From a virus, in IMG/VR virus record IMGVR_UViG_3300026628_000004: DNA of 36,326 nucleotides; one strand, written 5' to 3'. Of the stretch, positions 2,996 through 36,326 are shown in pieces. Made by a program: the position numbers and the translations under genes. How positions within the stretch are numbered: the stretch's first letter is position 1; each line of letters opens with the position of its first letter. Under the pieces are notes generated by a model. It saw only the letters and a program-made list of their open reading frames with translations, made no database searches and was not told where the DNA came from.

Positions 2996-4451
2996 AAAAA
3001 AATATGAGCTGAATAAAGAGATGCTTCCTGTCCAGCAGTTGAAAGACTACGAGCTGCGAGAGGAAGGAGAAGATATAGATTACAGCAAATTTGAGACAAA
3101 CAACTGGATGCGTATCGGTGTAGAGAATGAAACTCTTCAGGAGATATACAACAAAGGCGGCGGCGTATGGCAGGACTTTGACGGCTCAACCGTATATCGT
3201 CCTCACTTTGAAGAAGACATAATAAAGTTTGAAAGTGACAGGAAAGCGGCACAAGCGATAGCCAATTTTCTGGACAGAAAAAAAGTGAAACTATGGCAGG
3301 GCTCAGGATCCGGTGAAAATTTTCAGCCCCCTGATGTGTACGTCAATGAGGTGCTAAGTGTGAAGGAGCGGTTTACTGTATTCTGTAACAGCGAATTCTA
3401 CAGATATAATAACCTATGGTACAGAACGGCATTCCGACCGACAGAATATATGAAGATACAACGGAAGGAATACAAATACCCGGAGACAATTTTGAAACTA
3501 ATCCAGAATCTGTGCAATGATAATGCTGCATATTATGAGTGGGTGGTTAATTGGCTTGCCGGCTATTTTCAGACACTCAGGAAAAGCCAGGTTTCACTGT
3601 TGATGCGCGGGGATCAGGGCTCCGGTAAGGGTGTGTTTTTCAACAAGATCCTGGCCCCACTATTTGGTGAGCAATACTGTGCCATTGTGGATTCTGACAG
3701 GCTTGACTCTCAGTTCAAAGGGTGGGTTGCGGAGACGCTTTTTTTTAATCTGAACGAAATTGCCGTGGATATGAAGGCAAGAAAAAGCATTAAAAACTTT
3801 CTGAAACAGCTTGTAACCGATGACAAAGTGCAAATAGAGACAAAACACAAGGATGCAAAAGAAGTCAGAATCTACGGAAATATACTGATCACCAGCAATG
3901 AAGCTTTTCCAATAGAAATCGAGGCGTCTGACAGGCGCTTTACAGTAATGAGAACCGGCAAAACATTTAAAGAAAACGGATGGGATTACCAGCATATGGT
4001 AGAAAACATAAATAATGAGCTTGAAGATTTTGCTGTGTTTCTGAACCGTACAAAAGTCGACTGGAAAATGTATCATACTGCGCTGGAAACACCCGAAAAA
4101 ACAGCAATCGTAGACGCTACAAACAGTCAGACAGTCATGTTTATCAAAGCGGTTCTGAAGAAAGATATATCGTTCTTTGAGGATCTGAAAGATGAAAATT
4201 ATGACATTTACAATGATCTGAAGAGAGGTTTTAGAGAAAATATGGTGCTCCAGACTGCCCTCACAAGAGCTTACGATGAGATGTTTGAGAGTAAGAAGAG
4301 CTCAAAACGTATTATGTCAGATATCAGGAAGCTTGAACCGAACTATTTCGGCAAGCACAGAGTGCAAAAAAAATACGGTGCTAAATATTTTGAGCTTGAT
4401 CCCGGGATTGAGTTCATCGATATGGATGCCGTAGAGGATGAGAGACAATGA
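2988..4451 (+). CDS. SF3 replicative helicase (P4-alpha / D5 family) with a C-terminal domain shared with the BRO protein
   Basis: Walker A GDQGSGKGVF, Walker B-like LFFNLNE, and SF3 motif C ILITSN. Confidence 0.75.
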   Translation: MSEKKYELNKEMLPVQQLKDYELREEGEDIDYSKFETNNWMRIGVENETLQEIYNKGGGVWQDFDGSTVYRPHFEEDIIKFESDRKAAQAIANFLDRKKVKLWQGSGSGENFQPPDVYVNEVLSVKERFTVFCNSEFYRYNNLWYRTAFRPTEYMKIQRKEYKYPETILKLIQNLCNDNAAYYEWVVNWLAGYFQTLRKSQVSLLMRGDQGSGKGVFFNKILAPLFGEQYCAIVDSDRLDSQFKGWVAETLFFNLNEIAVDMKARKSIKNFLKQLVTDDKVQIETKHKDAKEVRIYGNILITSNEAFPIEIEASDRRFTVMRTGKTFKENGWDYQHMVENINNELEDFAVFLNRTKVDWKMYHTALETPEKTAIVDATNSQTVMFIKAVLKKDISFFEDLKDENYDIYNDLKRGFRENMVLQTALTRAYDEMFESKKSSKRIMSDIRKLEPNYFGKHRVQKKYGAKYFELDPGIEFIDMDAVEDERQ

Positions 4452-11937: not shown

Positions 11938-13145
11938 TTCTAAAAACATTACTTGCTCAGCAGTGGGCAATGCAGCGCGATGCTCTGCAGAAAATGTACG
12001 ATATAGCTCTGCAGCATAAAAACAATAACTTTGATGCTGTGCAATTGAAATCGGGTGAACCACTGAAGAATACAATAGAAACAACTGTTCGCGACGGAGT
12101 GGCCATTATCCCTGTGACCGGTCCCATATTTCGATATGCAAACCTGTTTACTGCAATGTGCGGAGCAACATCGATAGAAATATTCGCACAGGAATTAAAT
12201 ACGGCAGTGGAAAACCCGGATGTAAAAGCAATCATCCTGGACATAGATTCCCCGGGCGGTCAGGTGTCGGGTATACATGAGCTGGCCGAAACCATTTATA
12301 ATTTCAGAGACACAAAACCGATAAAGGCTTATGTAGGCTCACTTGCCGCAAGCGCAGGTTATTTTATAGCAAGCGCTGCAGATGAAATCATCATTGACGC
12401 AATGGGACAGGCAGGCAGCATCGGTGTTGTAACAACGCTTTATACAAACAAAGATGAGAACAGTGTTGAGATTGTATCAAGCAAGAGCCCGAATAAGCGT
12501 CCTGATTTCTCGACAGAGGAAGGAAAATCAAAAGTACAGGGGCTTATCGATGAGATGGCGGATGTGTTTATCGACAGGGTAGCGAAATACAGAAATATGA
12601 CTGCAGAAGCTGTTGTAAAAGCGGGCGATTTTGGCGGCGTTCGTATAGGTACGAGTGCTGTAAATGCCGGTCTGGCTGACAGGCTTGGAAATATGGAAGA
12701 TCTAATAAAAGAATTAAGCGAAAAGGAGGATGCCACCATGGTAGTAAAACGCGGAGCAACCACAGGCAAATCTGAAGAAGATATGTCCGGCAAAGAGAAA
12801 GAGTTATCTCCGGATACCGTAAAAGCGGATTATCCGGAAATAGCCGAAGCACTTAAAAAGGAAGGCGCAAAAGACGAAAGAGACAGAATCAAAGCTGTGG
12901 AAGACGCATCAATCACAGGTGCAGAGGATTTGATTGCCGAATTGAAATATGACGGCAAAACAACCGGACCGGAAGCTGCTGCAAAAGTGCTGCAGAAAAT
13001 GAAAACAGCCGGTAATGACATCCTGGCATCATTGAAAGATGAAGCTCCAAGGACAGTAAAAGGGTCTGAAGATGATAAGCAGACCGCTCAGGCAAATCTT
13101 GAGAATTACATGATCGAATCAGCAGGAGGAAAGAAAAATGAGTGA
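11934..13145 (+). CDS. Head maturation protease, S49 (SppA/ClpP-like; lambda gpC-type)
   Basis: LDIDSPGGQV and ASAGYFIASAAD motifs. It has a charged scaffold-like C-terminal third. Confidence 0.85.
   Translation: MILKTLLAQQWAMQRDALQKMYDIALQHKNNNFDAVQLKSGEPLKNTIETTVRDGVAIIPVTGPIFRYANLFTAMCGATSIEIFAQELNTAVENPDVKAIILDIDSPGGQVSGIHELAETIYNFRDTKPIKAYVGSLAASAGYFIASAADEIIIDAMGQAGSIGVVTTLYTNKDENSVEIVSSKSPNKRPDFSTEEGKSKVQGLIDEMADVFIDRVAKYRNMTAEAVVKAGDFGGVRIGTSAVNAGLADRLGNMEDLIKELSEKEDATMVVKRGATTGKSEEDMSGKEKELSPDTVKADYPEIAEALKKEGAKDERDRIKAVEDASITGAEDLIAELKYDGKTTGPEAAAKVLQKMKTAGNDILASLKDEAPRTVKGSEDDKQTAQANLENYMIESAGGKKNE
12738..13145 (+). CDS. Candidate nested scaffolding protein (Nu3-like in-frame internal start)
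   Basis: AAGGAGG (12723-12729) lies 8 nt upstream of an in-frame ATG at 12738. The downstream 135 aa are charged and alpha-helical. Confidence 0.45.
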   Translation: MVVKRGATTGKSEEDMSGKEKELSPDTVKADYPEIAEALKKEGAKDERDRIKAVEDASITGAEDLIAELKYDGKTTGPEAAAKVLQKMKTAGNDILASLKDEAPRTVKGSEDDKQTAQANLENYMIESAGGKKNE

Positions 13146-25606: not shown

Positions 25607-25916
25607 TTTTGAAGTATCTACACTGCATTTAGACGAAGTAGTTTTTTTTCCTGAAGGACATAGGGAGATATTCCAAAATATAGCCATGATACTGTCAACA
25701 ATTAAGGGCAGTCTGCCTCTTGACAGGGATTTCGGGATATCTGCCATATTTCTTGATGCACCTACAGAAAGGGCAAAAGCGCTCTTGAGGTCTGAAATCA
25801 TCGATGCTGTCCAAAAATATGAACCGAGAGCAGAAATAATATCAGTAAAATTCAGCGGTGATATAAACGGTAAAATATATCCAACCGCGCGCGTGAGGGT
25901 GAAAGATGGATATTAG
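25584..25916 (+). CDS. Baseplate wedge protein (gpW / T4 gp25-like)
   Basis: IFQNIAMILSTIKGSLPLDRDFG...I.DAVQKYEPR pattern. The start may be at 25593. Confidence 0.75.
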   Translation: MLTMKSNDFEVSTLHLDEVVFFPEGHREIFQNIAMILSTIKGSLPLDRDFGISAIFLDAPTERAKALLRSEIIDAVQKYEPRAEIISVKFSGDINGKIYPTARVRVKDGY

Positions 25917-27024
25917 TATTCTTGAAGACATAAAGTTTGTAGAAACTGATCCTGCACAAGTAGAGCAGGAGATAATAAATGCATTTGAAAATATTTCCGG
26001 AAAAACACTTTACGCAGGTGATCCTGTAAGATTATTTCTTGAAGGTCTTGCGTATGTTATTTCTCAGCAACGGTTTCTTATCGATTCCGCAGCTAAGAGC
26101 AATCTTTTAGCGTATGCAACCGGTAATAATCTTGACCATATTGCAGTCTTGTTAGATGTTGTACGCTTAGAACCATCATATGCAACAGTGGATGTGCAAT
26201 TCAACAAGAACCAGGATTACAGCGGACAGGTAACTATACCGCTCGGAACCAGAGTAACCCCTGATAACAAAATATATTTCAAAACAATTAAAGAAAAAAT
26301 AATTGAAACCGGAGAGACGAACGTAACAGTAAAATGCATATGTACCACCGCCGGCCAGGCAGGTAATGGTTTTACTGCAGGGCAAATAGTGACAATTGTG
26401 GATCCTGTTGGGTATATAGAATCTGTAACAAATACCACAACATCCCTGGGAGGTGCAGACTATGAAACTGATGAGCATTTCAGAAGCCGGATACAGATAG
26501 CTCCGGAAAAATTCAGCACAGCAGGACCGGCAGGTGCATATGAATATTGGGCAAAAACAGCACATCCAGATATAGCTGATGTTTATGTGAGCAGTCCCAG
26601 TCCGGGTGTCGTGGATGTATATCCGCTTATGAAGAACGGCGGATTGCCGGACGCTGCCGTTATCCAGGATGTGGAGGATATTCTTACAACTGAAAAAAAA
26701 CGGCCGCTTACCGATTCCGTATCTGTATATCAGCCGCAGCAGGTTAACTACACTATCGATATCGTGTACTATATCAATAATTCTGATGCATCAGTTTCAA
26801 GCAAGATACAGCAGAGAGTGCAGGAGGGCGTTAAAAATTTTACAGATTGGACAAAAGAGAAACTCGGCAGAGATATAAATCCATCAGAACTAATAAGAGT
26901 TATCCAGAACGCAGGCGCCAAAAGAGTTGTAGTGAACAGCCCATCCTACACTGAGGTTGCTGGATCGTCTGTAGCTATAGCAGCAACAAGCACAATAACT
27001 TACGGCGGGCTTGAAGATGAGTAA
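25906..27024 (+). CDS. Baseplate protein J-like
   Basis: 372 aa, in the W-J-I order. It has GG.D.E.DE.FR.RI and AY.YWA segments. Confidence 0.8.
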   Translation: MDISILEDIKFVETDPAQVEQEIINAFENISGKTLYAGDPVRLFLEGLAYVISQQRFLIDSAAKSNLLAYATGNNLDHIAVLLDVVRLEPSYATVDVQFNKNQDYSGQVTIPLGTRVTPDNKIYFKTIKEKIIETGETNVTVKCICTTAGQAGNGFTAGQIVTIVDPVGYIESVTNTTTSLGGADYETDEHFRSRIQIAPEKFSTAGPAGAYEYWAKTAHPDIADVYVSSPSPGVVDVYPLMKNGGLPDAAVIQDVEDILTTEKKRPLTDSVSVYQPQQVNYTIDIVYYINNSDASVSSKIQQRVQEGVKNFTDWTKEKLGRDINPSELIRVIQNAGAKRVVVNSPSYTEVAGSSVAIAATSTITYGGLEDE

Positions 27025-27793
27025 AAAATATACTGATATATCGCTGAAAAATATACTGCCTGAAAATCTGATCAAAGACAGTAATATATCAAAAATTATT
27101 GACACTGTGGATCCTCATATTCTTGAAGCTGCAGGACTCATTAAAAACGCAGAAATATTTTCTTCATTAGACAATCAAAGTGAGCAGATACTTGAACTGC
27201 TCGGCTGGCAATTTCATGTGACACGCTTTGAAGGGTGGTCAGAAAATCTTAACATCACACAAAAAGCTGAGCTCATCAGAAATGCGATACTCTTACACCG
27301 CTACAAGGGGACCCCATGGTCTGTAAAAAAAGCATTTGATATAATAGGTATAGAAGCAACAATTAAAGAATGGTTTCAGGATGGTGGATCCGGGGAGCCA
27401 TATACTTTTAATATCTTTTTAAAAATAGCAGAAGATATTGAACATCTTTATAATGCACTGGGCATAATAGATCAAATGAAAAACGTTAGAAGCAAGTATT
27501 ATGTTGATTTTGATCTGCTGTCAGAAACAAAGATGACAATACAATCTGGTATACTGAACGATATTGAGCCTGAGAAAGCTTTCTCGCTTGAGAAAGCTGT
27601 TTCTTTTTATACGCCTATCGGGAAAATATTCAACATTGATACAGAGGATTCTTTTACAATAGAAAGCAATACAGCTGCATCTTTAAAAAGTGCCGGAATT
27701 TTTTCTCATGAAATCGATAAAGCTGATTTGGAAATAGAAAGATCCGCAACAAAATATATAGGAGCACAAGGTATCATAAATTTTTATATATAA
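27011..27793 (+). CDS. Tail protein I-like (P2 gpI family)
   Basis: ILP.NL near the N-terminus, then LLGWQFHV..FEGW...Q.KAELIRNAILLHRYKGTPW. Confidence 0.7.
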   Translation: MKMSKKYTDISLKNILPENLIKDSNISKIIDTVDPHILEAAGLIKNAEIFSSLDNQSEQILELLGWQFHVTRFEGWSENLNITQKAELIRNAILLHRYKGTPWSVKKAFDIIGIEATIKEWFQDGGSGEPYTFNIFLKIAEDIEHLYNALGIIDQMKNVRSKYYVDFDLLSETKMTIQSGILNDIEPEKAFSLEKAVSFYTPIGKIFNIDTEDSFTIESNTAASLKSAGIFSHEIDKADLEIERSATKYIGAQGIINFYI

Positions 27794-27805: not shown

Positions 27806-28948
27806 ATGTCAGTAACAGGATTGCCCACCAGCCAGGGCATTGATATTCTCACAAGCAATCTGCGTGAGAATGTAACGAAATTTTGTTTATATGGTACAGA
27901 TACATCCTCAGGCACTGTTTCCTGGGATGAAAACTCAACACTTTCATCACTTTCTGCTTATCTGCTGGGAAAATTTGATATTGCAAGGGCATATTTTGAT
28001 GACAACGGCACACTAACTTTCGAATGTCCGATCCCATATGATTTCTCAGATACAAAATGGGTGGGTGCAGCAGGCATAATATATGTTGATGCAAATCTAT
28101 CCGAAACATTAGTGTCCGTAAGCCCTATGCCAAAGTTTCAAAAGACAGCCGGTATAGGTGGTACTATACGTTTTAAAGTGCCGATAGCAGGTGCAGCCGG
28201 CGATCTGATTTTTGAACAGATGCCATATGTATCAAAGCAAGAGTTAGACACAGTGTTAAACGAGATATTTTCAGGTATGTCTCTCTCTCTGGATGAGGCT
28301 TCAGTTGCAAACAAAGAGATACTGAAAACGCTTGATCAGAGAAATCAAACAGGCATTGCAACAATATATAACAGAGGTGTTGTGAAAGGCTGTGTTGCTT
28401 CTAAAAGTGCAGACTCAACAAGAAATATCTCACTCTCTTCCGGGCTGGTCTATATGCATGGCAGGTTAATTGCAGTGCCGGAACTGATTAACACTGCAAA
28501 TGTCCCGCCTAACACAGGTAGTGTAGCCAAAGATTCTTATTTGTTCCTGTGGGAAGATATCAATGGTGATATACAGGTTGACTGCACAACGCTCGATACT
28601 CAGCCCCCGGAAAACAGCATAACACTCTACAGGATAAATGTTCCTGCCGGTTCAACAGAGGCTACTGATCCGTATATAGGAAATTGCACACTGAATGATG
28701 TCAGAGTGCTTGAACCAAAATATCCGACACTGCTTGCAAATGCACCGCTTATCTATGTACCTCTTGAATTCGATCTGCTCGATGATGAATACCTTGTGCA
28801 ACTTGATATTCTCGATTTTGAAGGCGGAGGTTTTCAGCTCGGATATTGTTACGTAGGGGACAGAGCCAGCAACGGATTTAGCATATATCTAAACGGCACA
28901 GCGGATAAGGTGCGTGTGCGCTACAACGTATTAAAAAACAAGTTATAA
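27806..28948 (+). CDS. Putative tail fibre protein (call based on position)
   Basis: It follows J and I, the position of P2 gpH. AAGGAGG RBS. No recognisable motif. Confidence 0.4.
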   Translation: MSVTGLPTSQGIDILTSNLRENVTKFCLYGTDTSSGTVSWDENSTLSSLSAYLLGKFDIARAYFDDNGTLTFECPIPYDFSDTKWVGAAGIIYVDANLSETLVSVSPMPKFQKTAGIGGTIRFKVPIAGAAGDLIFEQMPYVSKQELDTVLNEIFSGMSLSLDEASVANKEILKTLDQRNQTGIATIYNRGVVKGCVASKSADSTRNISLSSGLVYMHGRLIAVPELINTANVPPNTGSVAKDSYLFLWEDINGDIQVDCTTLDTQPPENSITLYRINVPAGSTEATDPYIGNCTLNDVRVLEPKYPTLLANAPLIYVPLEFDLLDDEYLVQLDILDFEGGGFQLGYCYVGDRASNGFSIYLNGTADKVRVRYNVLKNKL

Positions 28949-28960
28949 GGAGGTATTTAC

Positions 28961-29287
28961 ATGAACTTTGAATACAAAGGAAAACAAGACGCAGAATATT
29001 CTGCATGTACCGTCGATGCCGATGTTGTAACTATCGGAGGGGAAACTTTTGATCTCGGGAGTCTTCAGACAGACGAACAAAAAATAATCGATGTCAAAGA
29101 AAACTCCAGGTACTTGGCAAACATTTTCATCCCGCCGGCAGAATATGACTACATCGAAACCGGTGAGACAGATATAGACGGGAACAAGATTTTTGAAAAA
29201 ACCAGAAAACCGGTTAACCAAGAAAAAGTTAAAATAATTCTATGGGAAAAGAAGCCAATAAATAATAACACAGAAGGAGGAATATAA
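28961..29287 (+). CDS. Hypothetical protein between the fibre and the DGR target
   Basis: AAGGAGG RBS. The stop abuts the start of the target gene. Confidence 0.45.
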   Translation: MNFEYKGKQDAEYSACTVDADVVTIGGETFDLGSLQTDEQKIIDVKENSRYLANIFIPPAEYDYIETGETDIDGNKIFEKTRKPVNQEKVKIILWEKKPINNNTEGGI

Positions 29288-29288
29288 A

Positions 29289-30317
29289 ATGCCAACAATT
29301 TTTACAAAAGACACATTGCGTGCCTCAGTCGAAGCTGCAACAGGAGGTAAAGTAACAGTATTGTACGATGACAAAGGTTATCCTTCATTTTGTCATGTAA
29401 TCCCGAAGTTCAACAATGAGGATATTGATCCCGCTCTTGGAACAGGTGTTTTCCCCGGTTTTATTGTCGGGGGGGTAGAAAAGAGCGAGATTTTCATCGG
29501 GCAGCAGCTTGCATCTGTTCAGGACGGACGCGCTGTTTCTTTGCCCGGGATGGATCCGGCAAATTACGTAACCTATGATGATGCAAATAATTACTGTAAG
29601 AACAAAGGTGCTGGCTGGCACTTGATGACAAACTGGGAATGGGCTGCAGTTGCTTTGTATTGCCTCAAGAACGGCTTTCAACCCCGCGGCAACACTGATT
29701 ACGGCCGCAGCCATGAGCTTACTCATGAAACTGCAGTAAGACAGGACGGTCTTGCACCGGGCGCAGCAGGTACAGCAAGATCATTGACAGGTTCAGGTCC
29801 AGCCAGTTGGAGGCACAACGATGATTTTACAGGTATTGCCGATTTGGTAGGTAACGTCTGGGAATGGACAGGAGGCCTGAAGTTAGTTGACGGTCAAATT
29901 ATCATGCCAAATGACAACAATTACGCCCTCGATGAGGTTAATTGGACATCTCAAGGTTACTTTTTTGATGCGTCAGCTGCCGGTGACGGGACAGGAGATG
30001 ACGCTGACCCGATCTTAAACAATCAGGTTACTACACCAATGACACCTGACAGCTATGCTCAGATTCCTAACTGGAAAGATTTGACAATAGATGCAGGCAT
30101 TACAGTCCCTAAGATTCTCCTACAGGCTTGCATAGCACCTTATGATATCACTAACCCAAAGGGAGCCCTATGGATACGAAACTATGGAGAGCGCATGCCG
30201 CTCCGTGGCGGTAACTGGTTCTATGCGTCCCATGCGGGCCTGTTTGCCTTGAACTTGGACAACGAGCGTTCGCTCTCGCGCAGCAATCTCGGGTTTCGGC
30301 CAGCTTTTGTTGGGTAA
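29289..30317 (+). CDS. DGR variable (target) protein with a C-type lectin / FGE-sulfatase-fold C-terminal domain; probable receptor-binding protein
   Basis: GAGWHLMTNWEWAAVA and GNVWEWTGG motifs. The last ~40 aa (aa 303-341) are encoded by the VR. It lies at the distal end of the tail fibre module. Confidence 0.85.
   Translation: MPTIFTKDTLRASVEAATGGKVTVLYDDKGYPSFCHVIPKFNNEDIDPALGTGVFPGFIVGGVEKSEIFIGQQLASVQDGRAVSLPGMDPANYVTYDDANNYCKNKGAGWHLMTNWEWAAVALYCLKNGFQPRGNTDYGRSHELTHETAVRQDGLAPGAAGTARSLTGSGPASWRHNDDFTGIADLVGNVWEWTGGLKLVDGQIIMPNDNNYALDEVNWTSQGYFFDASAAGDGTGDDADPILNNQVTTPMTPDSYAQIPNWKDLTIDAGITVPKILLQACIAPYDITNPKGALWIRNYGERMPLRGGNWFYASHAGLFALNLDNERSLSRSNLGFRPAFVG
30196..30311 (+). repeat. 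DGR variable region (VR)
   Basis: 116 bp aligns ungapped with 30728-30843. All 13 mismatches fall on adenines of the partner. It covers the 3-prime end of the target ORF. Confidence 0.9.
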
Positions 30318-30327
30318 CTAAATACTG

Positions 30328-30351
30328 ATTGCGGGGCGTTAGCCCCGCAAT
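30328..30351 (+). promoter_or_regulatory. GC-rich hairpin (10-bp stem ATTGCGGGGC/GCCCCGCAAT, loop GTTA) 16 nt downstream of the VR; DGR target-recognition hairpin candidate
   Basis: Read directly from the sequence. No equivalent hairpin follows the TR. Confidence 0.6.
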
Positions 30352-30394
30352 TGTTGCCTTATTCTCTATGGAGGGGAAATTGGAAGTCTTTAAA

Positions 30395-30715
30395 ATGAAA
30401 GAAAAATGTATTGATATGATCCAATATGGATATATAGCCTTGCAACAGTTTCCTAAGTCAGAAAAATTTACATTGGCTGCAGATATAAAAAGATATATGT
30501 ATTCTTTGCTTGAGAATATTGTAAAGCTTGCAAATTTAAGAGATAAAAAAAGAATTTTAAAAAATATAGATATATGCCTTGAAATGCTCAAAACATTCAT
30601 ACGCCTTGCACGAGATCTGAAATTTTTGAGCATCAAAAAGTACGAAATTATTTCAAGACATATTGTTGAGCTTGGCAAAATGAACGGTGGATACTGGAAA
30701 AGTCTAAAGGGATAA
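30395..30715 (+). CDS. avd: Accessory variability determinant (Avd), four-helix-bundle family
   Basis: It lies between the VR and the TR. The protein is basic and helical, with FPK.EKF.LA..I and ELGKMNGGYWKS segments resembling bAvd. The start could be 30368 or 30395; the ORF-track start at 30329 lies inside the hairpin. Confidence 0.8.
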   Translation: MKEKCIDMIQYGYIALQQFPKSEKFTLAADIKRYMYSLLENIVKLANLRDKKRILKNIDICLEMLKTFIRLARDLKFLSIKKYEIISRHIVELGKMNGGYWKSLKG

Positions 30716-30727
30716 AGCTGTAAAGTG

Positions 30728-30843
30728 TGCCGATCCGTGGCGGTAACTGGAACAATGCGTCCAATGCGGGCCTGTTTGCCTTGAACTTGAACAACGAGCG
30801 TTCGAACTCGAACAGCAATATCGGGTTTCGGCCAGCTTTAATT
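30728..30843 (+). repeat. DGR template repeat (TR)
   Basis: Partner of the VR. It has 27 adenines by my count and 10 in-phase AAY codons. It lies between avd and the RT. Confidence 0.9.
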
Positions 30844-30998
30844 CAAAGCTTGATATTGCAGACTCATGGGTTTGCAATCTATGCAAAAATAAAAGGAGCT
30901 TTATTCCTTCCTGTTACAGGAAAATATATACACACCTGGATGGTTAGTAAGCTAAATATGGCTGAAAGTGATCCGGGTTATTTTTACCAGGAGTTTTT

Positions 30999-32018
30999 AT
31001 GCCAAAAACAGCAAATAACATCTGGGATGAGGTTGTTGATTTTGAGAATCTATATTTTGCTTATCTTGCTGCAAGGAAATGTAAAAGATTTGCAAAAGAC
31101 GTTATGGAATATTCTGAAAGACTTGAAGAAAATCTTATTAATACACAGAACCATTTAATATGGAAAAGCTGGACTCCTCACCGCTGGAAAGAATTTTATG
31201 TACATGACCCTAAAACAAGGTTAATCCAAGCTCCCCAGTTTAGAGACAGGGTTGTTCATCATGCTCTTGTTAGAGTTGTCGAGCCATATTTTGAAAAGAA
31301 ATTTATCTATGATTCTTATGCCTGCAGAGTCAACAAAGGTACCCATGCTGCAATGCAAAGATTAAAACATTTTTTGCAAATAGCAACCAGGCAGCATTCT
31401 AATCCCTATATCCTAAAATGCGACATTAGAAAATATTTCCCATCTATTGATCATTATGCCCTGAAAAAGACAATCCGGAGAACAATAAAAGATGAAAACA
31501 CTCTTTGGCTCTTGGATAACACTATCGATCAGGAACCGAGTGGCAAAGGTTTACCCATTGGTTCTTTGACAAGTCAGCTTATGGCAAATGTAAATCTTGA
31601 TGTTTTAGATCATTATTGTAAAGACGAGCATGGTATCAAGTTTTATGTACGCTATATGGATGATTTTATTATAATTCATCATGATAAAGAATATCTAAAA
31701 TTTTTACTGGATGACTTAGGGTGGTTTTTGACAACAAACTTAGGCTTAAGCCTTAATTCTAAAACCCAAATTTTCCCTTACAATCAGGGTATAAATTTTT
31801 GCGGTTATCGTATTTGGCCAACACATGTATTGCCGAGAAAGAGAACAATCAGGAAAGCAAAAAACCGGTTCAGAAAATTTAGTAAACTTTATTGTGCCGG
31901 CAATATGTCGCTTGAAGATATAAAACCCTCTCTTATGAGTTTCCTGGGATATGCAAAACATTGCAATTCTTACAACACAGTATCTTCAATATTCGAAAAT
32001 CTTGTGTTCAAAAGATGA
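30999..32018 (+). CDS. DGR reverse transcriptase
   Basis: YMDD catalytic box (VRYMDDFIIIH) and the DGR-typical LPIGSLTSQLMANV motif. 339 aa. CAGGAG RBS. Confidence 0.92.
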   Translation: MPKTANNIWDEVVDFENLYFAYLAARKCKRFAKDVMEYSERLEENLINTQNHLIWKSWTPHRWKEFYVHDPKTRLIQAPQFRDRVVHHALVRVVEPYFEKKFIYDSYACRVNKGTHAAMQRLKHFLQIATRQHSNPYILKCDIRKYFPSIDHYALKKTIRRTIKDENTLWLLDNTIDQEPSGKGLPIGSLTSQLMANVNLDVLDHYCKDEHGIKFYVRYMDDFIIIHHDKEYLKFLLDDLGWFLTTNLGLSLNSKTQIFPYNQGINFCGYRIWPTHVLPRKRTIRKAKNRFRKFSKLYCAGNMSLEDIKPSLMSFLGYAKHCNSYNTVSSIFENLVFKR

Positions 32019-32030
32019 CAAATTATCCCC

Positions 32031-32057
32031 CAGGGGGCTAATAGGGGGCTAAAAATT
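32031..32057 (+). repeat. 27-bp direct repeat copy 1 (CAGGGGGCTAATAGGGGGCTAAAAATT); candidate integrase arm-type site
   Basis: Identical to 32282-32308. Each copy contains GGGGGCTA twice. The two copies flank the tRNA-fragment core. Confidence 0.6.
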
Positions 32058-32072
32058 TCAGCCCCTTTTTTT
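32045..32072 (+). terminator. Rho-independent terminator after the RT gene
   Basis: GGGGCT-N9-AGCCCC stem followed by TTTTTTT. Confidence 0.6.
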
Positions 32073-32112
32073 ACTTTTCCTGTAAATAACTGTGAAAATG
32101 GATTTTTAGAAA

Positions 32113-32154
32113 TGCGCCCGGCACGATTCGAACGTGCGACCTACGGATTAGAAG
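32113..32154 (-). tRNA. Partial tRNA, 3-prime part only: tRNA-Arg(UCU)-like anticodon loop, variable loop, T-arm and acceptor 3-prime strand; probable attP core
   Basis: The reverse complement reads CTTCTAA-TCCGT-AGGTC-GCACG-TTCGAAT-CGTGC-CGGGCGC-A. There is no D-arm or 5-prime acceptor strand, and the anticodon-stem pairing breaks down upstream. Confidence 0.6.
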
Positions 32155-32281
32155 TGCGATATTAGCGAACTTATCTCTGTTTGTCAATTTTTTTATTTAA
32201 AGATATCTTTCAGTGAAATATAAAGAAAATTGATTTTTACAAAATATTCGGTTACCCTTTAATACCCTGCTTTTTTCGCAT

Positions 32282-32308
32282 CAGGGGGCTAATAGGGGGC
32301 TAAAAATT
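32282..32308 (+). repeat. 27-bp direct repeat copy 2; overlaps the RBS and TTG start of int
   Basis: Identical to 32031-32057. Confidence 0.6.
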
Positions 32309-33386
32309 GTACAAGAAAACTAACCTACCCGGAGTGTTTTATTACCCGTCCAGAGTAAGAAAACACAAAGGTAAACCAGACAAGTGTTACTATATCAGAT
32401 ATTCAAGAAATGGCAAGAAAACAAGGGAGAAGATAGGCTGGCAAAGTGAGGGATTTTCTGCACACTTAGCAAGTCAGATACGTGCTGAACGTATCTCCGG
32501 ACACTATAAAGAAAAACAAAGCTTAACCGTAGAGGAAGCTGTAAAGAAGTATATAAATGCTGTCAAGGCAAATAAAGCCAGCTGGAAAGATGATCAGCAT
32601 CGATTAAAGCCTTTTTTAGATGATTATGGCCAGAGTCAAATCAATGATATAACTCCAGGGGATATTGAATCATATATAAATAGGATAAAAAAAGGCAACA
32701 GAAAACCTGCAACAGTAAAGCAATATCTGCAAGTTGTCAGGAGACTGTTTAATTACCTCAACGAGCAAGAGCTTTTTGACAAACAAAACCCAGCAGCTCG
32801 GGTAAAGGTCTCTGTGCCAGATAACACAGTTGTTGAAGCATTGACCCCTGAAGAATGTGAGAGGCTGCAGGATGTCTGTTTAAACAGCGAGATAAGATAT
32901 AACGGCGGATATGTTATCCTTTTTGCTTTATACACAGGTTTGAGGGCGTCAAGTCTTTTTCGGCTAAAATGGGAAGACGTGGATTTAAAAAAGAAATCCA
33001 TCAGGCTTAAAAAAACAAAAAATCGAAGGCAGGCAACTATCTTACTTTCTGATTTGGCTGTGGATCTCCTGGAATCTCTCGATCATAATGATGAATATGT
33101 GTTTCCATCTCCTTTTGGCGGGCAAAGAAAAGATATAAGACGAGTGTGGAAAAAAGTAAAAAGAGAAGCCGAAATTCGCCCTCACATCCGTTTTCATGAT
33201 CTCCGGCATACGTTTGCTACCATGCTCGCCGAAAAGGGCGTAGATTTGGATGTAATCAGTCGTATGCTTACCCACAGCAGCATTGTTGTCACTCAAAAAT
33301 ATGCACATATTAGAGATAAGCGTCTTAAAAAAGCTACCGGTGAAATAGATAATATTTTCAGATCCGATGATCCAGAACAAAATTAA
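32307..33386 (+). CDS. int: Tyrosine recombinase (phage integrase)
   Basis: LYTGLRASSLFRLKWEDVD (Arg box), HDLRHTFAT and THSSIVVTQKYAH (catalytic Tyr). TTG start after AGGGGG. Confidence 0.9.
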   Translation: MYKKTNLPGVFYYPSRVRKHKGKPDKCYYIRYSRNGKKTREKIGWQSEGFSAHLASQIRAERISGHYKEKQSLTVEEAVKKYINAVKANKASWKDDQHRLKPFLDDYGQSQINDITPGDIESYINRIKKGNRKPATVKQYLQVVRRLFNYLNEQELFDKQNPAARVKVSVPDNTVVEALTPEECERLQDVCLNSEIRYNGGYVILFALYTGLRASSLFRLKWEDVDLKKKSIRLKKTKNRRQATILLSDLAVDLLESLDHNDEYVFPSPFGGQRKDIRRVWKKVKREAEIRPHIRFHDLRHTFATMLAEKGVDLDVISRMLTHSSIVVTQKYAHIRDKRLKKATGEIDNIFRSDDPEQN

Positions 33387-33405
33387 ATAAAAAACCGTTT
33401 ACAGG

Positions 33406-33469
33406 ATAACAATACAGAGCAATAAAATCTTTCCGGAAAGCCTGGCCACGAGCTGGATCCAAAGCCAGG
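33406..33469 (+). repeat. Palindrome-rich intergenic element, copy 2 (copy 1 at 9761-9824)
   Basis: Same alignment as copy 1. In this copy the outer stem extends to 8 bp (AGCCTGGC/GCCAGGCT). Confidence 0.85.
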
Positions 33470-33539
33470 CTAAGCACCAACATAACAACCTACCATAATA
33501 TATAATAAAGAAGCTCTCAGGCGGGCACACAAGCATAGA

Positions 33540-33835
33540 AAACAAATGAGGTATAAATATAGATGTGCCTGGTGTACATTGTGCTTAAGGCTCTGTAAAG
33601 GACTGTTGCCCTGCATTAGCCGCTTGCTCCATACTTGGATGACAGGCACACATTAATTGTTTCTAAACAGCTACAGGCGCAGGTGTATCCCCCGCTCCCC
33701 CTACGAAGGGAAGCAACGGTTATATAGGAAAACAAACAAAAGACTTCTTACGGTTTATTCTAACCTCAATTATAGGTTCTTTCAGAAGAAAAACGCTTTA
33801 CGGAGCGCAAGCCCGCAAGGGTTGTTTATTTTTTG
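33540..33835 (+). ncRNA. Candidate structured non-coding RNA (class unknown)
   Basis: There is no credible ORF. TGTGCCTG (33563-33570) can pair long-range with CAGGCACA (33643-33650). Two GCAA tetraloop hairpins lie near 33805-33823, followed by the U-rich tract GTTTATTTTTT. Confidence 0.2.
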
Positions 33836-33893
33836 CAATAAAAATACAATGCAGCAATATGTCATGTAGGATATGCCGGTATATTCGATGTTA

Positions 33894-34180
33894 GTGTGTG
33901 ATTCCGGAAAAAGCCGGTAATTCTGGTTTCAATAGTGCAGTTTTTTGATCCCAGGGAAAACCGGTAATTTTTTGTTTCATAAGCAAAGCCCAGGGAAAAA
34001 TAACAGGCTGGGCGATCCTCCGGGGCATGCAGAAATAATGAGATTCCGAAACCTGTATAGTATGAGAAAGTGGATCACATTGTTTGTTTTGCCGGTTATG
34101 TGTTTTTCCCAGGTGAACCGGATAGATTTTCCCAGGCGAATATAGTGGAAACGAAAAATCAGAGAAACCGGGACACACAC
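33894..34180. repeat. 287-bp element bounded by imperfect inverted repeats, with four internal CCCAGGGAAAA-type sites
   Basis: The ends are GTGTGTGATTCCGG (33894-33907) and CCGGGACACACAC (34168-34180). CCCAGGGAAAA occurs at 33950 and 33989, and TTTTCCCAGG at 34104 and 34127. Confidence 0.4.
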
Positions 34181-34265
34181 AATGAGGGTTCACGTTTCCA
34201 GCAAGTGGTTTTGTTAACTGTTTTAAAATTTGCCGCCGAAAACTTCTTCATTTGTGGACCCAGTG

Positions 34266-34580
34266 GGACTCAAATTTTTTCCTTCGGTCCTCGGTATAAA
34301 TGTAAGATATAAAAAACAAAAAAGAGCGTTCCCTTTTCAGGGGGCAAAATCTACGGACTCAAAACATTATTTATTATCAGTCAGTAGACTCAGAAGGACT
34401 CAAAAGAGGGGTTTTACAACTTTTATATTATAATTTCACAGAGAACTTTTTTTGCTGTATTTGAGTCCATTGGGTCCAGAGAGACATTATATATTTTTAT
34501 ATAGCTGATATTATTAAAAAAAGCTCTGGACTCAGTTGAAAAAATTTGAGTCCTTTTGAGTCCAGAGATGAGTCCAGAGA
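34266..34580. repeat. Iteron array with a GGACTC/GAGTCC core (8 perfect and 2 variant copies)
   Basis: GGACTC occurs at 34266, 34355, 34396 and 34528, with AGACTC at 34386. GAGTCC occurs at 34463, 34548, 34558 and 34570, with GGGTCC at 34473. The extended form GAGTCCAGAG occurs three times. An AT-rich tract lies at about 34620-34760. Confidence 0.6.
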
Positions 34581-34883
34581 GCAAAATTATTGCTTTTTCC
34601 GGAAAATCGCATAGTGCATAAACCATTAATATATATACAAGTACACATTATTTATATTGAATTTTTTATAATAAGATACTGACAACATTAGCTAATGATT
34701 TTTTATTATAATCGGAATGGTTTATTATTAGTAAAATTTATATAATAATCATCAACACAAAATGGGGAGCTTACGCAACATCTTTTAGCTGCAACAGATC
34801 AGAAAAATAAAGGTGGTTTTGGGAACATCGGTAAAAAAATCAGGAAAATAATCAATCAAAACTATTTCGGAAGGCTGAGTTAT

Positions 34884-35500: not shown

Positions 35501-36298
35501 ATGGAAATCGTAAAATTTAACAACGAACAGTTTGGTGAACTAAGAATTGCAGACATTGAGGGTAACCCGTGGTTTGTAGCAAGAGATGTTGCTGAAGCCT
35601 TAGGGTATAAGGACGCAATTAACGCTGTTAAGCTGCATTGCAAAGGGGTGGTAAAATACCACCCCTATAAACAGCGGGTTTCAGACGGGGTCGTGAAACA
35701 CGACCCCTATGAACAGGACATCTCAGGCGGTCAGGCATATAATATTATTCCTGAGTCTGATTTTTACCGCCTTGTACTGCGCTCTAAGCTTCCAAATGCT
35801 GAGCGTTTCCAGGACTGGGTGACATCGGAAGTGCTTCCGTCGATTCGCAAGACAGGCACATACTCATTATATGAGCGGGTTGACAGTGCTGATCTTTCGA
35901 TGAAATGCGAATTCCTGAAGCAGGTGAGGCTTTCCGCACAAAACTTGCCTGGCTGGCAGCGGAGACAGGCTATTGTGCAGAGCCTTGAGTCTGTGGGCCT
36001 GCGTGTCAAAGCCGGCATAAATGATGAAACGGCTGATTTCGTAAATGCCGTTGTCACAAAAGATATCCAGTATTTCGAGCACTTGAAGGAAAATCACCCT
36101 ACCCTTTACGATTCGATTGCCAGCAATTTTGAGCGCAATAGAATCAGGAGCAATGACATAATAAAGGCTTACCAAATCATGTGTAACCCAACACTTTCTT
36201 CAAAAGCTGTGATGGCAAAAATCAGGGAGTATGACTCCCGCTTTTCCGTATCAGAAGTAAGCCGTATTAGCTCAGAAAAGTACTACAAAATACAATAA
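35501..36298 (+). CDS. BRO-N domain antirepressor-like protein
   Basis: FNNEQFGELRI....GNPWFVARDVAEALGY......A...HCKGV ... IIPESDFYRLVLRSKLPNAERFQDWVTSEVLPSIRKTG is the classic BRO-N pattern. Confidence 0.8.
   Translation: MEIVKFNNEQFGELRIADIEGNPWFVARDVAEALGYKDAINAVKLHCKGVVKYHPYKQRVSDGVVKHDPYEQDISGGQAYNIIPESDFYRLVLRSKLPNAERFQDWVTSEVLPSIRKTGTYSLYERVDSADLSMKCEFLKQVRLSAQNLPGWQRRQAIVQSLESVGLRVKAGINDETADFVNAVVTKDIQYFEHLKENHPTLYDSIASNFERNRIRSNDIIKAYQIMCNPTLSSKAVMAKIREYDSRFSVSEVSRISSEKYYKIQ
35645..35728 (+). repeat. In-frame 2 x 42-bp tandem duplication inside the BRO-N gene; each unit begins with a perfect hairpin
   Basis: Unit 1 is GGGGTGG-TAAAATA-CCACCCC TATAAACAG. Unit 2 is GGGGTCGTG-AAA-CACGACCCC TATGAACAG. 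Confidence 0.8.
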
Positions 36299-36326
36299 TA
36301 GGAGAAAAAACAATAATGAGAAAAAA
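36200..36326. repeat. Terminal overlap copy B, identical to 1-127
   Basis: Same comparison as copy A. The offset is 36,199 bp. Confidence 0.95.

Follow-up and report, generated by a model that had tools for sequence, protein, structure and literature searches.

Does the region at 29289-32018 of this virus genome hold a working diversity-generating retroelement (DGR), and if so, which protein does it diversify and to what end? The stretch of DNA analyzed here, 36,326 nt and referred to as the window, is the 36.2-kb circular genome of a temperate, uncultivated myovirus with a lambda-like head and a contractile tail. A preliminary description of the sequence had placed all four DGR parts in this region, a target gene with a variable repeat (VR), an Avd accessory gene, a template repeat (TR) and a reverse transcriptase (RT) gene, and each was present where it had been placed. 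Features of the DGR lie on the plus strand. Together, the evidence makes it very probable that this phage carries a functional BPP-1-type DGR; the element fits plainly into an established class, as one of the VHML/TaqVP type, and is no novel kind of system.

Differences between TR and VR fall on template adenines

VR (30196-30307) and TR (30728-30839) form an ungapped 112-nt direct repeat with an offset of 532. The TR core holds 25 adenines, and all 11 VR/TR mismatches in the ungapped alignment fall on TR adenines, at codon positions 1 and 2 of AAC, AAT and ATC codons. The preliminary description had named mismatches outside adenines as evidence against a DGR, and the alignment contains adenine-specific mismatches only. 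Its TR of 116 bp is better cut to the 112-nt core. The last four nucleotides (30840-30843) are probably not templated, because position 30840 of TR is C in L012, a close relative, whereas T is retained in both VRs. All 13 mismatches within the 116-nt limits are at TR adenines, of which there are 27 (p = 3.6e-10, hypergeometric test), and the two additional "A" mismatches are better read as divergence between IMH and IMH*.

VR makes up the last 40 codons of the target gene, 14 of which are diversifiable (ten AAY, two ATC, one GAG and one AGC). Mutation cannot reach a stop codon from any of the 14, and the computed repertoire is ~1.5e14 proteins. A degenerate search of the whole window returned this one VR and the TR, with no further VR copies. 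TR is ~75-79% identical at the DNA level to the TRs of VHML (~75%), VP585, ACA1, phiWae15 and BalMu-1, and across 10 contigs it is unchanged but for one C/T site.

VR alleles differ on near-identical genomes

The preliminary description had suggested looking for polymorphism at TR-adenine positions in related genomes. We ran this check on contigs that came from independent samples and carried an identical RT or Avd, and it was strongly positive. Four full and two partial VR alleles were recovered; 23 of the 25 variable VR columns are at TR adenines (p = 1.9e-19), and 23 of the 25 TR adenines are hit across the alleles. Non-adenine differences in VR were a T-to-G change at 30228 in L111 and a T at 30239 in L110, whose own TR has C; the latter is accounted for by a recombination patch of the L012 type across 30059-30338. 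L012 and L115 have a C-to-T change in TR that is not at an adenine, and VR mirrors it. Judged from these differences between assemblies, information evidently passes from TR to VR with mutagenesis at adenines.

Could homing have ceased, leaving a recently inactivated relic with intact parts whose alleles date from earlier activity in the lineage? The VR allele of the window is unchanged in three contigs from different samples (the window, L112/L117 and L118), no convincing sigma-70-type promoter was predicted for avd-TR-RT, and the target site described below has a hairpin loop of GTTA rather than GRNA and one CTG unit before the hairpin versus three in L012. Against this, all ORFs are intact, the catalytic motifs are conserved and the RNA elements are intact. 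Contig L124 shares 6,661 of 6,681 nt with the window, yet 19 of the 20 differences lie within VR, so that diversification has taken place on an essentially identical genetic background. We therefore regard a relic as highly improbable and proceed with an active element.

The RT resembles DGR enzymes

The RT gene (30999-32018) encodes 339 aa that include YMDD and IGSLTSQ, which fit the YxDD and motif 4 ([I/L]GxxxSQ) of DGR-clade enzymes, with K29, F66, R74 and I76 conserved. The catalytic and mutagenesis residues of bRT are kept in it. Its best PDB match was bRT (8ub7; 193.9 bits, E 3.6e-56), with a group II RT next at 78.7 bits. Over its full length the protein is 37% identical to BPP-1 Brt, whose active-site and fingertip residues it shares, and it is 45% identical to the VHML RT and 37% identical to the RT of Pseudomonas phage Bise. 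In searches of NCBIfam and PADLOC, matches to group II, retron, DRT and Abi models were all below cut-off or partial, and matches to Cas-linked RTs were weak and below cut-off.

An enzyme of another class (group II intron, retron or Abi/DRT defence) beside an unrelated duplication would be the alternative, and the best NCBIfam model was a group II intron RT/maturase, at 139 bits, in a library seemingly without a DGR RT model. That score is far under the cut-off of 300, however, and the retron, DRT and Abi matches are weak. The bRT score is 194 bits as opposed to 79 for the best group II RT, the Avd equivalog adjoins the RT gene, the repeat mismatches are adenine-only, and the Rfam search matched only RT-14 and no intron RNA domains. 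The probability that we assign to this alternative is vanishingly small. The preliminary description had held that grouping with retron, group II or Abi enzymes would contradict a DGR RT; by sequence comparison the protein appears to side with bRT. As a candidate, a non-DGR class was ruled out by the bRT score, the Avd equivalog, the adenine-only mismatches and the VR alleles.

Avd and the spacer RNA

The Avd gene (30395-30715) encodes 106 aa, or 111 aa from an alternative TTG start at 30380 that is used by public gene callers. The protein scored 99.2 bits against NCBIfam DivGenRetAVD (equivalog cut-off 80), 98 bits against Pfam bAvd (5e-28; cut-off 40) and 5e-30 against the PHROG "Avd protein of DGR". 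It thus shares the Avd family with BPP-1, but the two proteins show no pairwise similarity in BLASTP, cannot be aligned pairwise and are linked by profiles only. The VHML record has no avd annotated.

The preliminary description put 155 nt between TR and the RT start, a length that the coordinates bear out. Most of this spacer (Sp) is covered by the Rfam family RT-14 (RF02921), which matches 30836-30978 over model positions 1-144 of 144 at 71.2 bits, where the gathering score is 48.1. The RT-14 model supplies P1 (30838-30844/30886-30892) and a 9-bp hairpin (30855-30863/30870-30878). An A-run (30885-30894) lies directly 5′ of a strand at 30897-30909, followed by a short hairpin (30910-30920), then AAAAUAUAUACAC (adenosines, AAAA), and a long hairpin (30934-30978). 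Across the aligned loci, RNAalifold found compensatory change in 18 of 30 pairs.

The strand at 30897-30909 pairs with the 3′ end of avd (30707-30719, spanning the avd stop codon) in a long-range duplex of 13 bp and -18.2 kcal/mol, which is present in the MFE fold of the avd end, TR and Sp. When five divergent RT-14 DGRs were compared, with the registers set by hand on conserved GGG and CCTT anchors, 96.7% of cells were paired, as opposed to 42-62% in slid controls, and 7 of the 12 pairs carried compensatory changes. The conserved UUUAUUCCUU stretch that RT-14 depicts as "unpaired" is thereby paired with the avd 3′ end. In BPP-1, the analogue described by Handa et al. (bioRxiv 10.1101/2023.10.23.563531) is the "cPRT Stop" duplex, with a short stem-loop and then adenosines after it. 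BPP-1-like DGR RNAs also have an Avd-binding stem-loop of about 9-11 bp just 3′ of TR (Handa et al., bioRxiv 10.1101/2023.10.23.563531). The 9-bp hairpin at 30855-30878, with compensatory changes in 8 of 10 predicted pairs across six loci and a loop of 6 nt rather than a tetraloop, is likely the Avd-binding element, and the long hairpin is likely the RT-binding element. For the template-primer duplex between TR and Sp, which in BPP-1-like RNAs has a priming adenosine, there are two candidate pairings, RT-14 P1 with two non-canonical pairs, and GCUUU with GGAGC.

RT-14 was also found in L005, L013, L015, L032 and L033, and it lies 3′ of a VR/TR pair in all but L033, where no such pair was found. 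In five loci its start lies within the final few nucleotides of a genuine TR. Weinberg et al. 2017 made the tie to DGRs only for RT-10, the spacer family of BPP-1, and offered other RT motifs as DGR elements as speculation. The window locus links RT-14 to DGRs. Neither VHML, at the gathering threshold, nor Bise has an RT-14 match. While the family differs from that of BPP-1, the series of spacer elements is the same, including the duplex of Sp with the avd 3′ end, and the layout can be matched element by element to the cryo-EM description of bRT-Avd-RNA. That the DGR RNA maps onto the BPP-1 model supports a priming and stop architecture conserved beyond Bordetella.

The 3′ boundary of VR

At 30289-30327 lies an IMH-like boundary, in which the VR end CGGGTTTCGGCCAGCTTT, invariant and G/C-rich, is followed by TGTTGGGTAA..ACTGATT, which is divergent from TR. 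VR/TR homology ends at 30308/30840, and no population VR allele varies 3′ of 30288. The segment falls short of a pure (GC)14 run. CTGATT stands directly before a hairpin, as in the 21-bp IMH element of BPP-1, but in the window the stop codon lies beyond the end of VR, and the CTG/IMH-like part does not code for protein.

The hairpin is a GC-rich, cruciform-forming inverted repeat (30328-30351) with a 10-bp stem and a 4-nt loop, 16-20 bp 3′ of VR. Its DNA fold is -13.6 kcal/mol (z = -5.3), matched by 0 of 200 shuffles. The stem is retained in L012, and relatives carry similar hairpins. In phage DGR target sites, a GC-rich inverted repeat of 7-10 bp, whose 4-nt loop reads GRNA, follows VR at a distance of 4-34 bp (Guo et al. 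2011, PMC3240598). The window hairpin fits in stem and distance, whereas its loop is GTTA (ATTA in L012), not GRNA. BPP-1 likewise has a hairpin after VR, with the loop GAAA, and that loop is sequence-sensitive (PMC3240598).

The number of CTG units before the hairpin varies, with one in the window, three in L012 and four in many other sequences. More widely, in targets of the TaqVP/VHML class the non-coding stretch from the stop codon to the GC hairpin holds one to five CTG(A/T) units, 7-8 nt apart. In VHML and VP585 these are AACTG units after the stop codon, followed by the GC hairpin; in Bise, by contrast, the hairpin comes directly after the stop codon without CTG units. The 21-bp half of the BPP-1 IMH reads TCTGTGA..CCTGATT. 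We tentatively speculate, while thinking it rather doubtful, that the CTG(A/T) array is the functional counterpart of this poorly understood half, a conserved recognition element that varies in copy number and tunes homing efficiency, and, as a related point, that the "unpaired" conserved core of Rfam RT-14 and RT-9 is one strand of the stop duplex. If true, the stop-duplex reading would tie the orphan RNA families RT-14 and RT-9 to DGR function.

The target protein and its possible role

The target gene (29289-30317) encodes a single C-type-lectin/FGE-fold protein of 342 aa from the TaqVP / VHML ORF35 family. It is a full-length homologue of PDB 5VF4 (E 1.4e-85, residues 6-341), the structure of TaqVP, the variable protein of a Thermus aquaticus prophage DGR (PMC6328139), and it matches Pfam FGE-sulfatase (6e-11) and phrog_2889 (3e-128). 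Identity is 46% to VHML ORF35 and VP585 gp18, over 99% of the length, and 46% to the Bise homologue. As in TaqVP, VR is C-terminal and ~40 residues long, and its final residues do not vary, which an IMH would lead one to expect. In the alignment of the two proteins, all nine variable positions of TaqVP correspond to TR-adenine codons and are covered by the variable residues of the target. TaqVP has these nine diversifiable codons and a repertoire of 3e9, as opposed to 14 and 1.5e14 in the window, and its phage and host are different.

TaqVP is a monomer and a single domain, without a separate anchoring or trimerising domain, unlike Mtd (PMC6328139). As regards how the target is attached to the virion, this counts against our main reading.

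From its position and family, the target is probably a receptor-binding protein. We also weighed a DGR that is genuine and active but serves another end, the target being a decoration or adhesin for environmental glycans or a protein expressed by the prophage. The domain make-up of TaqVP would suit this, PHROG 2889 has no assigned function, the 380-aa and 108-aa ORFs upstream match no known family, and no experiment ties the TaqVP/VHML ORF35 family to adsorption. On the other hand, the gene comes last in a V-W-J-I baseplate block whose genes share its orientation, in the same position as in VHML, VP585 and Bise, homologues carry the labels "antireceptor" (given by the depositors of Pseudoalteromonas phage ACA1) and "putative virion structural protein" (phiARM81mr), both no more than annotations, and the precedent of BPP-1 Mtd favours receptor binding. 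A role other than receptor binding is possible but, we think, unlikely. Because the target gene closes the baseplate/tail module, switching of receptor specificity is the most likely pay-off of the DGR.

Genome context and related phages

Upstream of the target, J (25906-27024) and I (27011-27793) were confirmed by family matches, in line with the preliminary description. Its "fibre" gene did not fare as well, since this 380-aa ORF, for which a putative fibre role was drawn from position and family, has no match in family, PHROG and PDB searches. A 108-aa ORF sits between it and the target gene, and for neither ORF was a family assigned by Pfam, NCBIfam or PHROG.

Downstream of the RT gene, attP and int had been predicted and both were located there, from a host-junction contig and an integrase domain. 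The attP region (32031-32308, no strand assigned) comprises a core flanked on either side by a 27-nt direct repeat, at 32031-32057 and at 32282-32308; the two copies are identical, and each is 2x AGGGGGCTAA. In the junction contig L127, the match to the window starts at 32114, and to its left lie genes for tRNA-His and tRNA-Leu of the host; this contig confirms attP between RT and int. The core, from 32114 to ~32158, coincides with the 3′ portion of a minus-strand tRNA-Arg(TCT), its right edge being estimated from tRNA anatomy. A hairpin followed by a T7 run (32044-32072, plus strand), 3′ of RT and overlapping the first attP arm repeat, may be terminator-like as read from the sequence; its fold shows the stem but is not significant alone (z = -0.96). 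The tyrosine integrase gene (32307-33386, plus strand) matches Pfam Phage_integrase at 2.8e-36.

The order target-avd-TR-RT is that of BPP-1 (mtd-avd-TR-brt), as the preliminary description had proposed. Both phages have VR at the C-terminus of the target, AAY-rich TR codons and a DGR near a tRNA-derived attP. They differ in that BPP-1 is a podovirus and its Mtd is trimeric with three domains, whereas the window target is of the single-domain TaqVP type. The DGR of Vibrio phage VHML / VP585, with ORF35 as its target, is among the phage DGRs of Guo et al. 2011 (PMC3240598) and shares W-J-I-fibre-VP-RT synteny in a P2-like tail module. The VHML order is simpler (J - I - tail fibre - VP - RT), and tail sheath and tube genes follow the DGR where the window has attP and int. 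Closest in synteny among cultured phages is Bise (OR683401), whose record does not annotate the DGR as such. Its order is J - tail protein - ORF - ORF - 106-aa ORF - VP - four-helix bundle - RT; the window synteny of J - I - X - small ORF - VP - Avd - TR - RT is common to both. One Bise ORF is a C-terminal homologue of the 380-aa protein (38% identity) and the 106-aa ORF has 26% identity to the 108-aa ORF. Downstream of the RT, Bise has a DNA methylase in place of the attP and int of the window.

A model for diversification and its significance

We propose, by analogy with BPP-1 for the priming site, the parts played by individual RNA elements, integration and receptor binding, that the transcript (avd 3′ end, TR and ~155-nt spacer) would fold into an RNP with RT and Avd. 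In this complex the spacer would provide the 9-bp hairpin, likely bound by Avd, an A-rich primer strand adjoining the 3′ end of TR, the short hairpin with its adenosines, and the long 3′ hairpin, likely bound by RT. RT would prime itself from the spacer, copy TR and misincorporate opposite the 25 template adenines, and the 13-bp duplex of spacer and avd 3′ end would stop cDNA synthesis just upstream of TR. The cDNA would then take the place of VR at the target gene's 3′ end, with the direction of homing set by the IMH-like VR end and the GC-rich hairpin downstream. Change would be limited to the 14 codons, on the ligand-binding face of the TaqVP-type C-type-lectin fold, and would most likely serve to switch host-receptor specificity.

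The window DGR leaves the understanding of how DGRs work unchanged. What it offers is a well-documented natural case, a complete circular genome with several VR alleles on near-identical backbones from independent samples, and a target with a homologue of solved structure, which allows the 14 variable residues to be mapped to a binding surface.

Substitutions in the variable repeat fall at template adenines

A repeat search of the window returned a 112-nt direct repeat of 90% identity, formed by 30196-30307, the variable repeat (VR) at the 3′ end of the target ORF (29289-30317), and 30728-30839, the template repeat (TR). Ungapped comparison at an offset of 532 places all 11 mismatches of this core at adenines of the downstream copy, and in the frame of the target ORF they all fall at codon positions 1 and 2 of AAC, AAT and ATC codons. 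The preliminary description had extended both repeats to 116 nt (30728-30843 and 30196-30311), and over those limits 13/13 mismatches are at TR adenines (27 A in 116 nt; chance probability 3.6e-10). Position 30840, however, is A in the window TR and C in the TR of a close relative, contig L012, while both VRs have T, which indicates that the templated region stops at or before 30839. We therefore retain the 112-nt core and drop the last four nucleotides; the final two "adenine" mismatches are best read as divergence between IMH, the element at the 3′ end of the VR, and its TR counterpart IMH*. With that correction the adenine specificity claimed for the pair stands, as the alignment contains no mismatch opposite another base.

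We considered a second, remote VR and rejected it. A degenerate TR pattern allowing 3 mismatches matched the VR and TR alone in the whole window, which argues for one VR and no remote target. A 143-aa ORF with a GTG start that runs through the TR (30727-31158, plus strand, reading MPIRGGNWNNASNAGLFALNLNNERSNSNSNIGFRPA...) was also rejected as a gene, since it echoes the reading frame of the VR copy and overlaps the spacer RNA as well as the start of the RT.

The 14 variable codons comprise 10 AAY, 2 ATC, one GAG and one AGC, none of which can be converted to a stop, giving a repertoire of ~1.5e14 proteins. When the target is aligned to TaqVP, the diversifiable positions take in all nine of its solvent-exposed variable residues.

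Natural VR alleles point to activity of the element

Contigs encoding exactly the same RT and Avd proteins were collected from JGI, ENA and Logan assemblies, and IMG/VR contains a 94-97% relative. Taken together, these supply four complete VR alleles and two partial ones, with a TR that is unchanged but for one C/T site. Across the alleles, 23 of the 25 variable VR columns are TR adenines (p = 1.9e-19), and 23/25 TR adenines have been replaced in one allele or more. Between contig L124 and the window there are 20 differences over 6681 positions, 19 of them inside the 112-nt VR. In the close relatives L012 and L115, a T replaces C at TR position 30771 and the matching change is present at VR position 30239, as predicted by one-way copying from TR to VR.

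There are two non-adenine exceptions, one in L111 at 30228 and one in L110 at 30239. The former is a T-to-G change (Ser314Ala) in the VR allele shared by L111 and L124, and could reflect either infrequent misincorporation opposite a base other than A or ordinary mutation. L110 (a JGI 3300026626 contig) has an otherwise window-type genome with a 280-nt patch of L012 type at 30059-30338, which extends from the 3′ part of the target gene through its VR to the hairpin. This recombination patch accounts for the VR T at 30239, where the contig's own TR has C, and the mosaic is evidence that DGR-bearing relatives recombine at the target gene.

The RT, Avd and target proteins resemble those of characterized DGRs

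The closest solved structure to the RT (30999-32018) is 8ub7, a 328-residue entry, at 193.9 bits; by sequence and residue numbering (K29, F66, R74, I76, IGSLTSQ) this entry is Bordetella bRT. Next, at 78.7 bits, is the RT of a group II intron, and NCBIfam and PADLOC models for group II, retron, DRT and Abi RTs gave matches that were partial or far under their cut-offs. We therefore reject an assignment of the RT to retrons, group II introns, Abi or DRT systems, in agreement with the earlier assignment of this RT to DGRs. The protein shares 37% identity with Brt and 45% with the RT of phage VHML. The Avd ORF (30395-30715) scores 99.2 bits against the NCBI equivalog model for DGR Avd (cut-off 80) and is also matched by Pfam bAvd and by the PHROG "Avd protein of DGR".

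The 342-aa target has a Pfam FGE-sulfatase match and aligns across its full length with PDB 5VF4 (E 1.4e-85). That entry is TaqVP, the variable protein from the DGR of a Thermus aquaticus prophage. It is monomeric and consists of one domain, a C-type-lectin fold of FGE subtype, with a C-terminal VR (PMC6328139).

The TR-RT spacer is an RT-14 RNA that can be arranged in the BPP-1 layout

The spacer between TR and RT matches Rfam RT-14 over the entire model (71 bits, gathering score 48), and in five loci RT-14 begins within the last bases of a genuine TR. Weinberg et al. connected RT-10 alone with a DGR (that of BPP-1) and speculated that other RT motifs could also be components of DGRs. We laid out the window RNA after the cryo-EM description of the bRT-Avd-RNA complex (bioRxiv 10.1101/2023.10.23.563531) and found that it can take the same layout as the RNA of the BPP-1 RNP: a 9-bp hairpin directly after the TR (30855-30878), an A-run (30885-30894), a spacer (Sp) strand (30897-30909) that pairs with the 3′ end of avd (30707-30719), a short hairpin followed by AAAAUAUAUACAC (30910-30920), and a long 3′ hairpin (30934-30978). 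The putative priming nucleotide is predicted to be one of A30891-A30894, and the cDNA 3′ end to lie within 30720-30727.

The 13-bp long-range avd:Sp duplex is part of the MFE structure predicted for the entire RNA. Its energy lies only ~1-2 sd under the shuffle mean and does not separate it from shuffles, so covariation is required to argue for the pairing. Among five divergent RT-14 DGRs the duplex is 96.7% paired with compensatory changes at 7/12 pairs, compared with 42-62% in slid controls, although the registers were set by hand on conserved anchors, which tilts the count somewhat toward structure. RNAalifold independently backed the hairpins and P1. Scans for promoters and terminators gave none beyond shuffle expectation.

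A hairpin and CTG units follow the target stop codon

A GC-rich inverted repeat lies 3′ of the VR (30328-30351), with a 10-bp stem and a 4-nt GTTA loop (-13.6 kcal/mol, z = -5.3). Guo et al. described hairpins or cruciforms 4-34 bp downstream of phage VRs, with stems of 7-10 bp and 4-nt GRNA loops (PMC3240598). The window hairpin resembles these, but its loop departs from GRNA. The TR side (30840-30878) and the VR side (30308-30351) show vestigial similarity, the former reading AAAGCTTGATATTGCAG, the latter AAATACTGAT-TGCGG, each with a hairpin behind it. The first hairpin of the spacer may be a positional homologue of that at the target site, a remnant of the original duplication.

Tandem CTG(A/T) units with 7-7/8-8 nt spacing were also observed between the stop codon and the GC hairpin at 17 distinct TaqVP-family loci. 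The stretches compared are 30318-30330 of the window, the sequence downstream of the target stop in contigs L001-L032, L115 and L121 (VHML), and 3440-3460 on the minus strand of L129 (BPP-1). In the first 40 nt after the stop at the 17 loci, CTGA occurs 37 times (2.8 expected) and TCTG 34 times (2.3 expected). The window has one unit (ACTGATT), VHML two, and L012 and L115 three, by way of an 8-nt insertion. In BPP-1 the 21-bp IMH element just ahead of the hairpin reads TCTGTGACCACCTGATT. We found no description of the array in Guo et al. 2011 (PMC3240598). Complementarity between the array and a TCAGA motif in the 5′ spacer was dropped as a candidate, being present in two other RT-14 loci (L013 and L015) and missing from the window and a third (L032).

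The element lies between the tail genes and attP of a complete phage genome

A 127-bp exact terminal direct repeat (1-127 and 36200-36326), together with two contigs (L122 and L125) that cross the window ends, shows that the window is a circular, complete phage genome of 36,199 bp. Head genes encode a gpA-type terminase, a lambda-family portal, an S49 protease and a gpE-type capsid protein; tail genes encode a contractile sheath, a tape measure and V/W/J/I baseplate proteins. The sheath is at most 50% identical to those of cultured phages (Vibrio phages X29 and phi 2). As for the host, a single scan of genome contigs gave only relatives at 38-48% (Spirochaetia, Treponema, Desulfobacteraceae, Proteiniphilum, Aliarcobacter).

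After gene I come a 380-aa ORF (27806-28948), a 108-aa ORF (28961-29287, phrog_8734) and the target. Pseudomonas phage Bise (OR683401) has the same order and VHML a simpler version. The element had been placed in a tail-fibre module; its position after J/I is borne out, but the fibre itself is not, as the 380-aa ORF has no match in Pfam, NCBIfam, PHROG or PDB. The 108-aa ORF has none in Pfam, NCBIfam or PDB. Both proteins are candidates for a fibre or an adaptor through which the monomeric target could be anchored to the tail. For the 380-aa protein, the 150 N-terminal residues are found again in Helicobacter prophages and in Vibrio phages.

Downstream, as originally described, lie attP and int. 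The attP core (32114 to ~32158, minus strand) is the 3′ part of tRNA-Arg(TCT) and lies between RT and int. Two identical direct repeats of 27 nt, each containing two copies of AGGGGGCTAA, lie on either side of it within the attP region (32031-32308) and probably serve as arm sites for the integrase. In contig L127 (1-290) the match to the window starts only at 32114, with host tRNA-His(GTG), tRNA-Leu(TAG) and a partial tRNA to its left, and we interpret this as an integrated junction; its 245-nt host flank contains tRNA genes alone. Six further integrase-bearing contigs are in the phage (attP) form, L127 being the exception. Given this junction and the position of attP between RT and int, the DGR would sit at the very end of the prophage, adjoining the rebuilt tRNA. 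An unrelated IMG/VR contig with a TaqVP-family target (L021) has an Rfam int-alpA RNA match at 12106-12173 (38.8 bits, gathering score 35.8).

Beyond attP come the integrase, a 1.5-kb ORF-poor stretch, and then a repressor of CI type and a Bro-N protein. The ORF-poor stretch (33400-34880, most notably 34266-34575) contains eight GGACTCA heptamers in both orientations; the window has 11 in total against 3.1 expected, a count reached in 0/100 shuffles. It also holds tandem copies of TGAGTCCAGAGA and long inverted repeats, and has no Rfam match. These repeats could act as operators or iterons, or form an origin.

Discussion

The DGR anatomy and mechanism first proposed for this locus hold: VR/TR mismatches are confined to adenines, Avd matches its equivalog model, the RT is bRT-like and the target is of TaqVP type. 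The element shows every defining DGR feature open to an in silico test, apart from the hairpin loop (GTTA, off GRNA) and IMH, whose function is beyond judgement from sequence alone. By these features we assign it to the BPP-1-type DGRs, within the VHML/TaqVP target group, and would expect it to work like the BPP-1 type. Temperate-phage DGRs of this type have been catalogued since 2004, so the window DGR adds a member to a known class. Three points are mildly new: the connection of RT-14 with the stop duplex of DGRs, the array of CTG units that precedes the hairpin, and the natural series of VR alleles.
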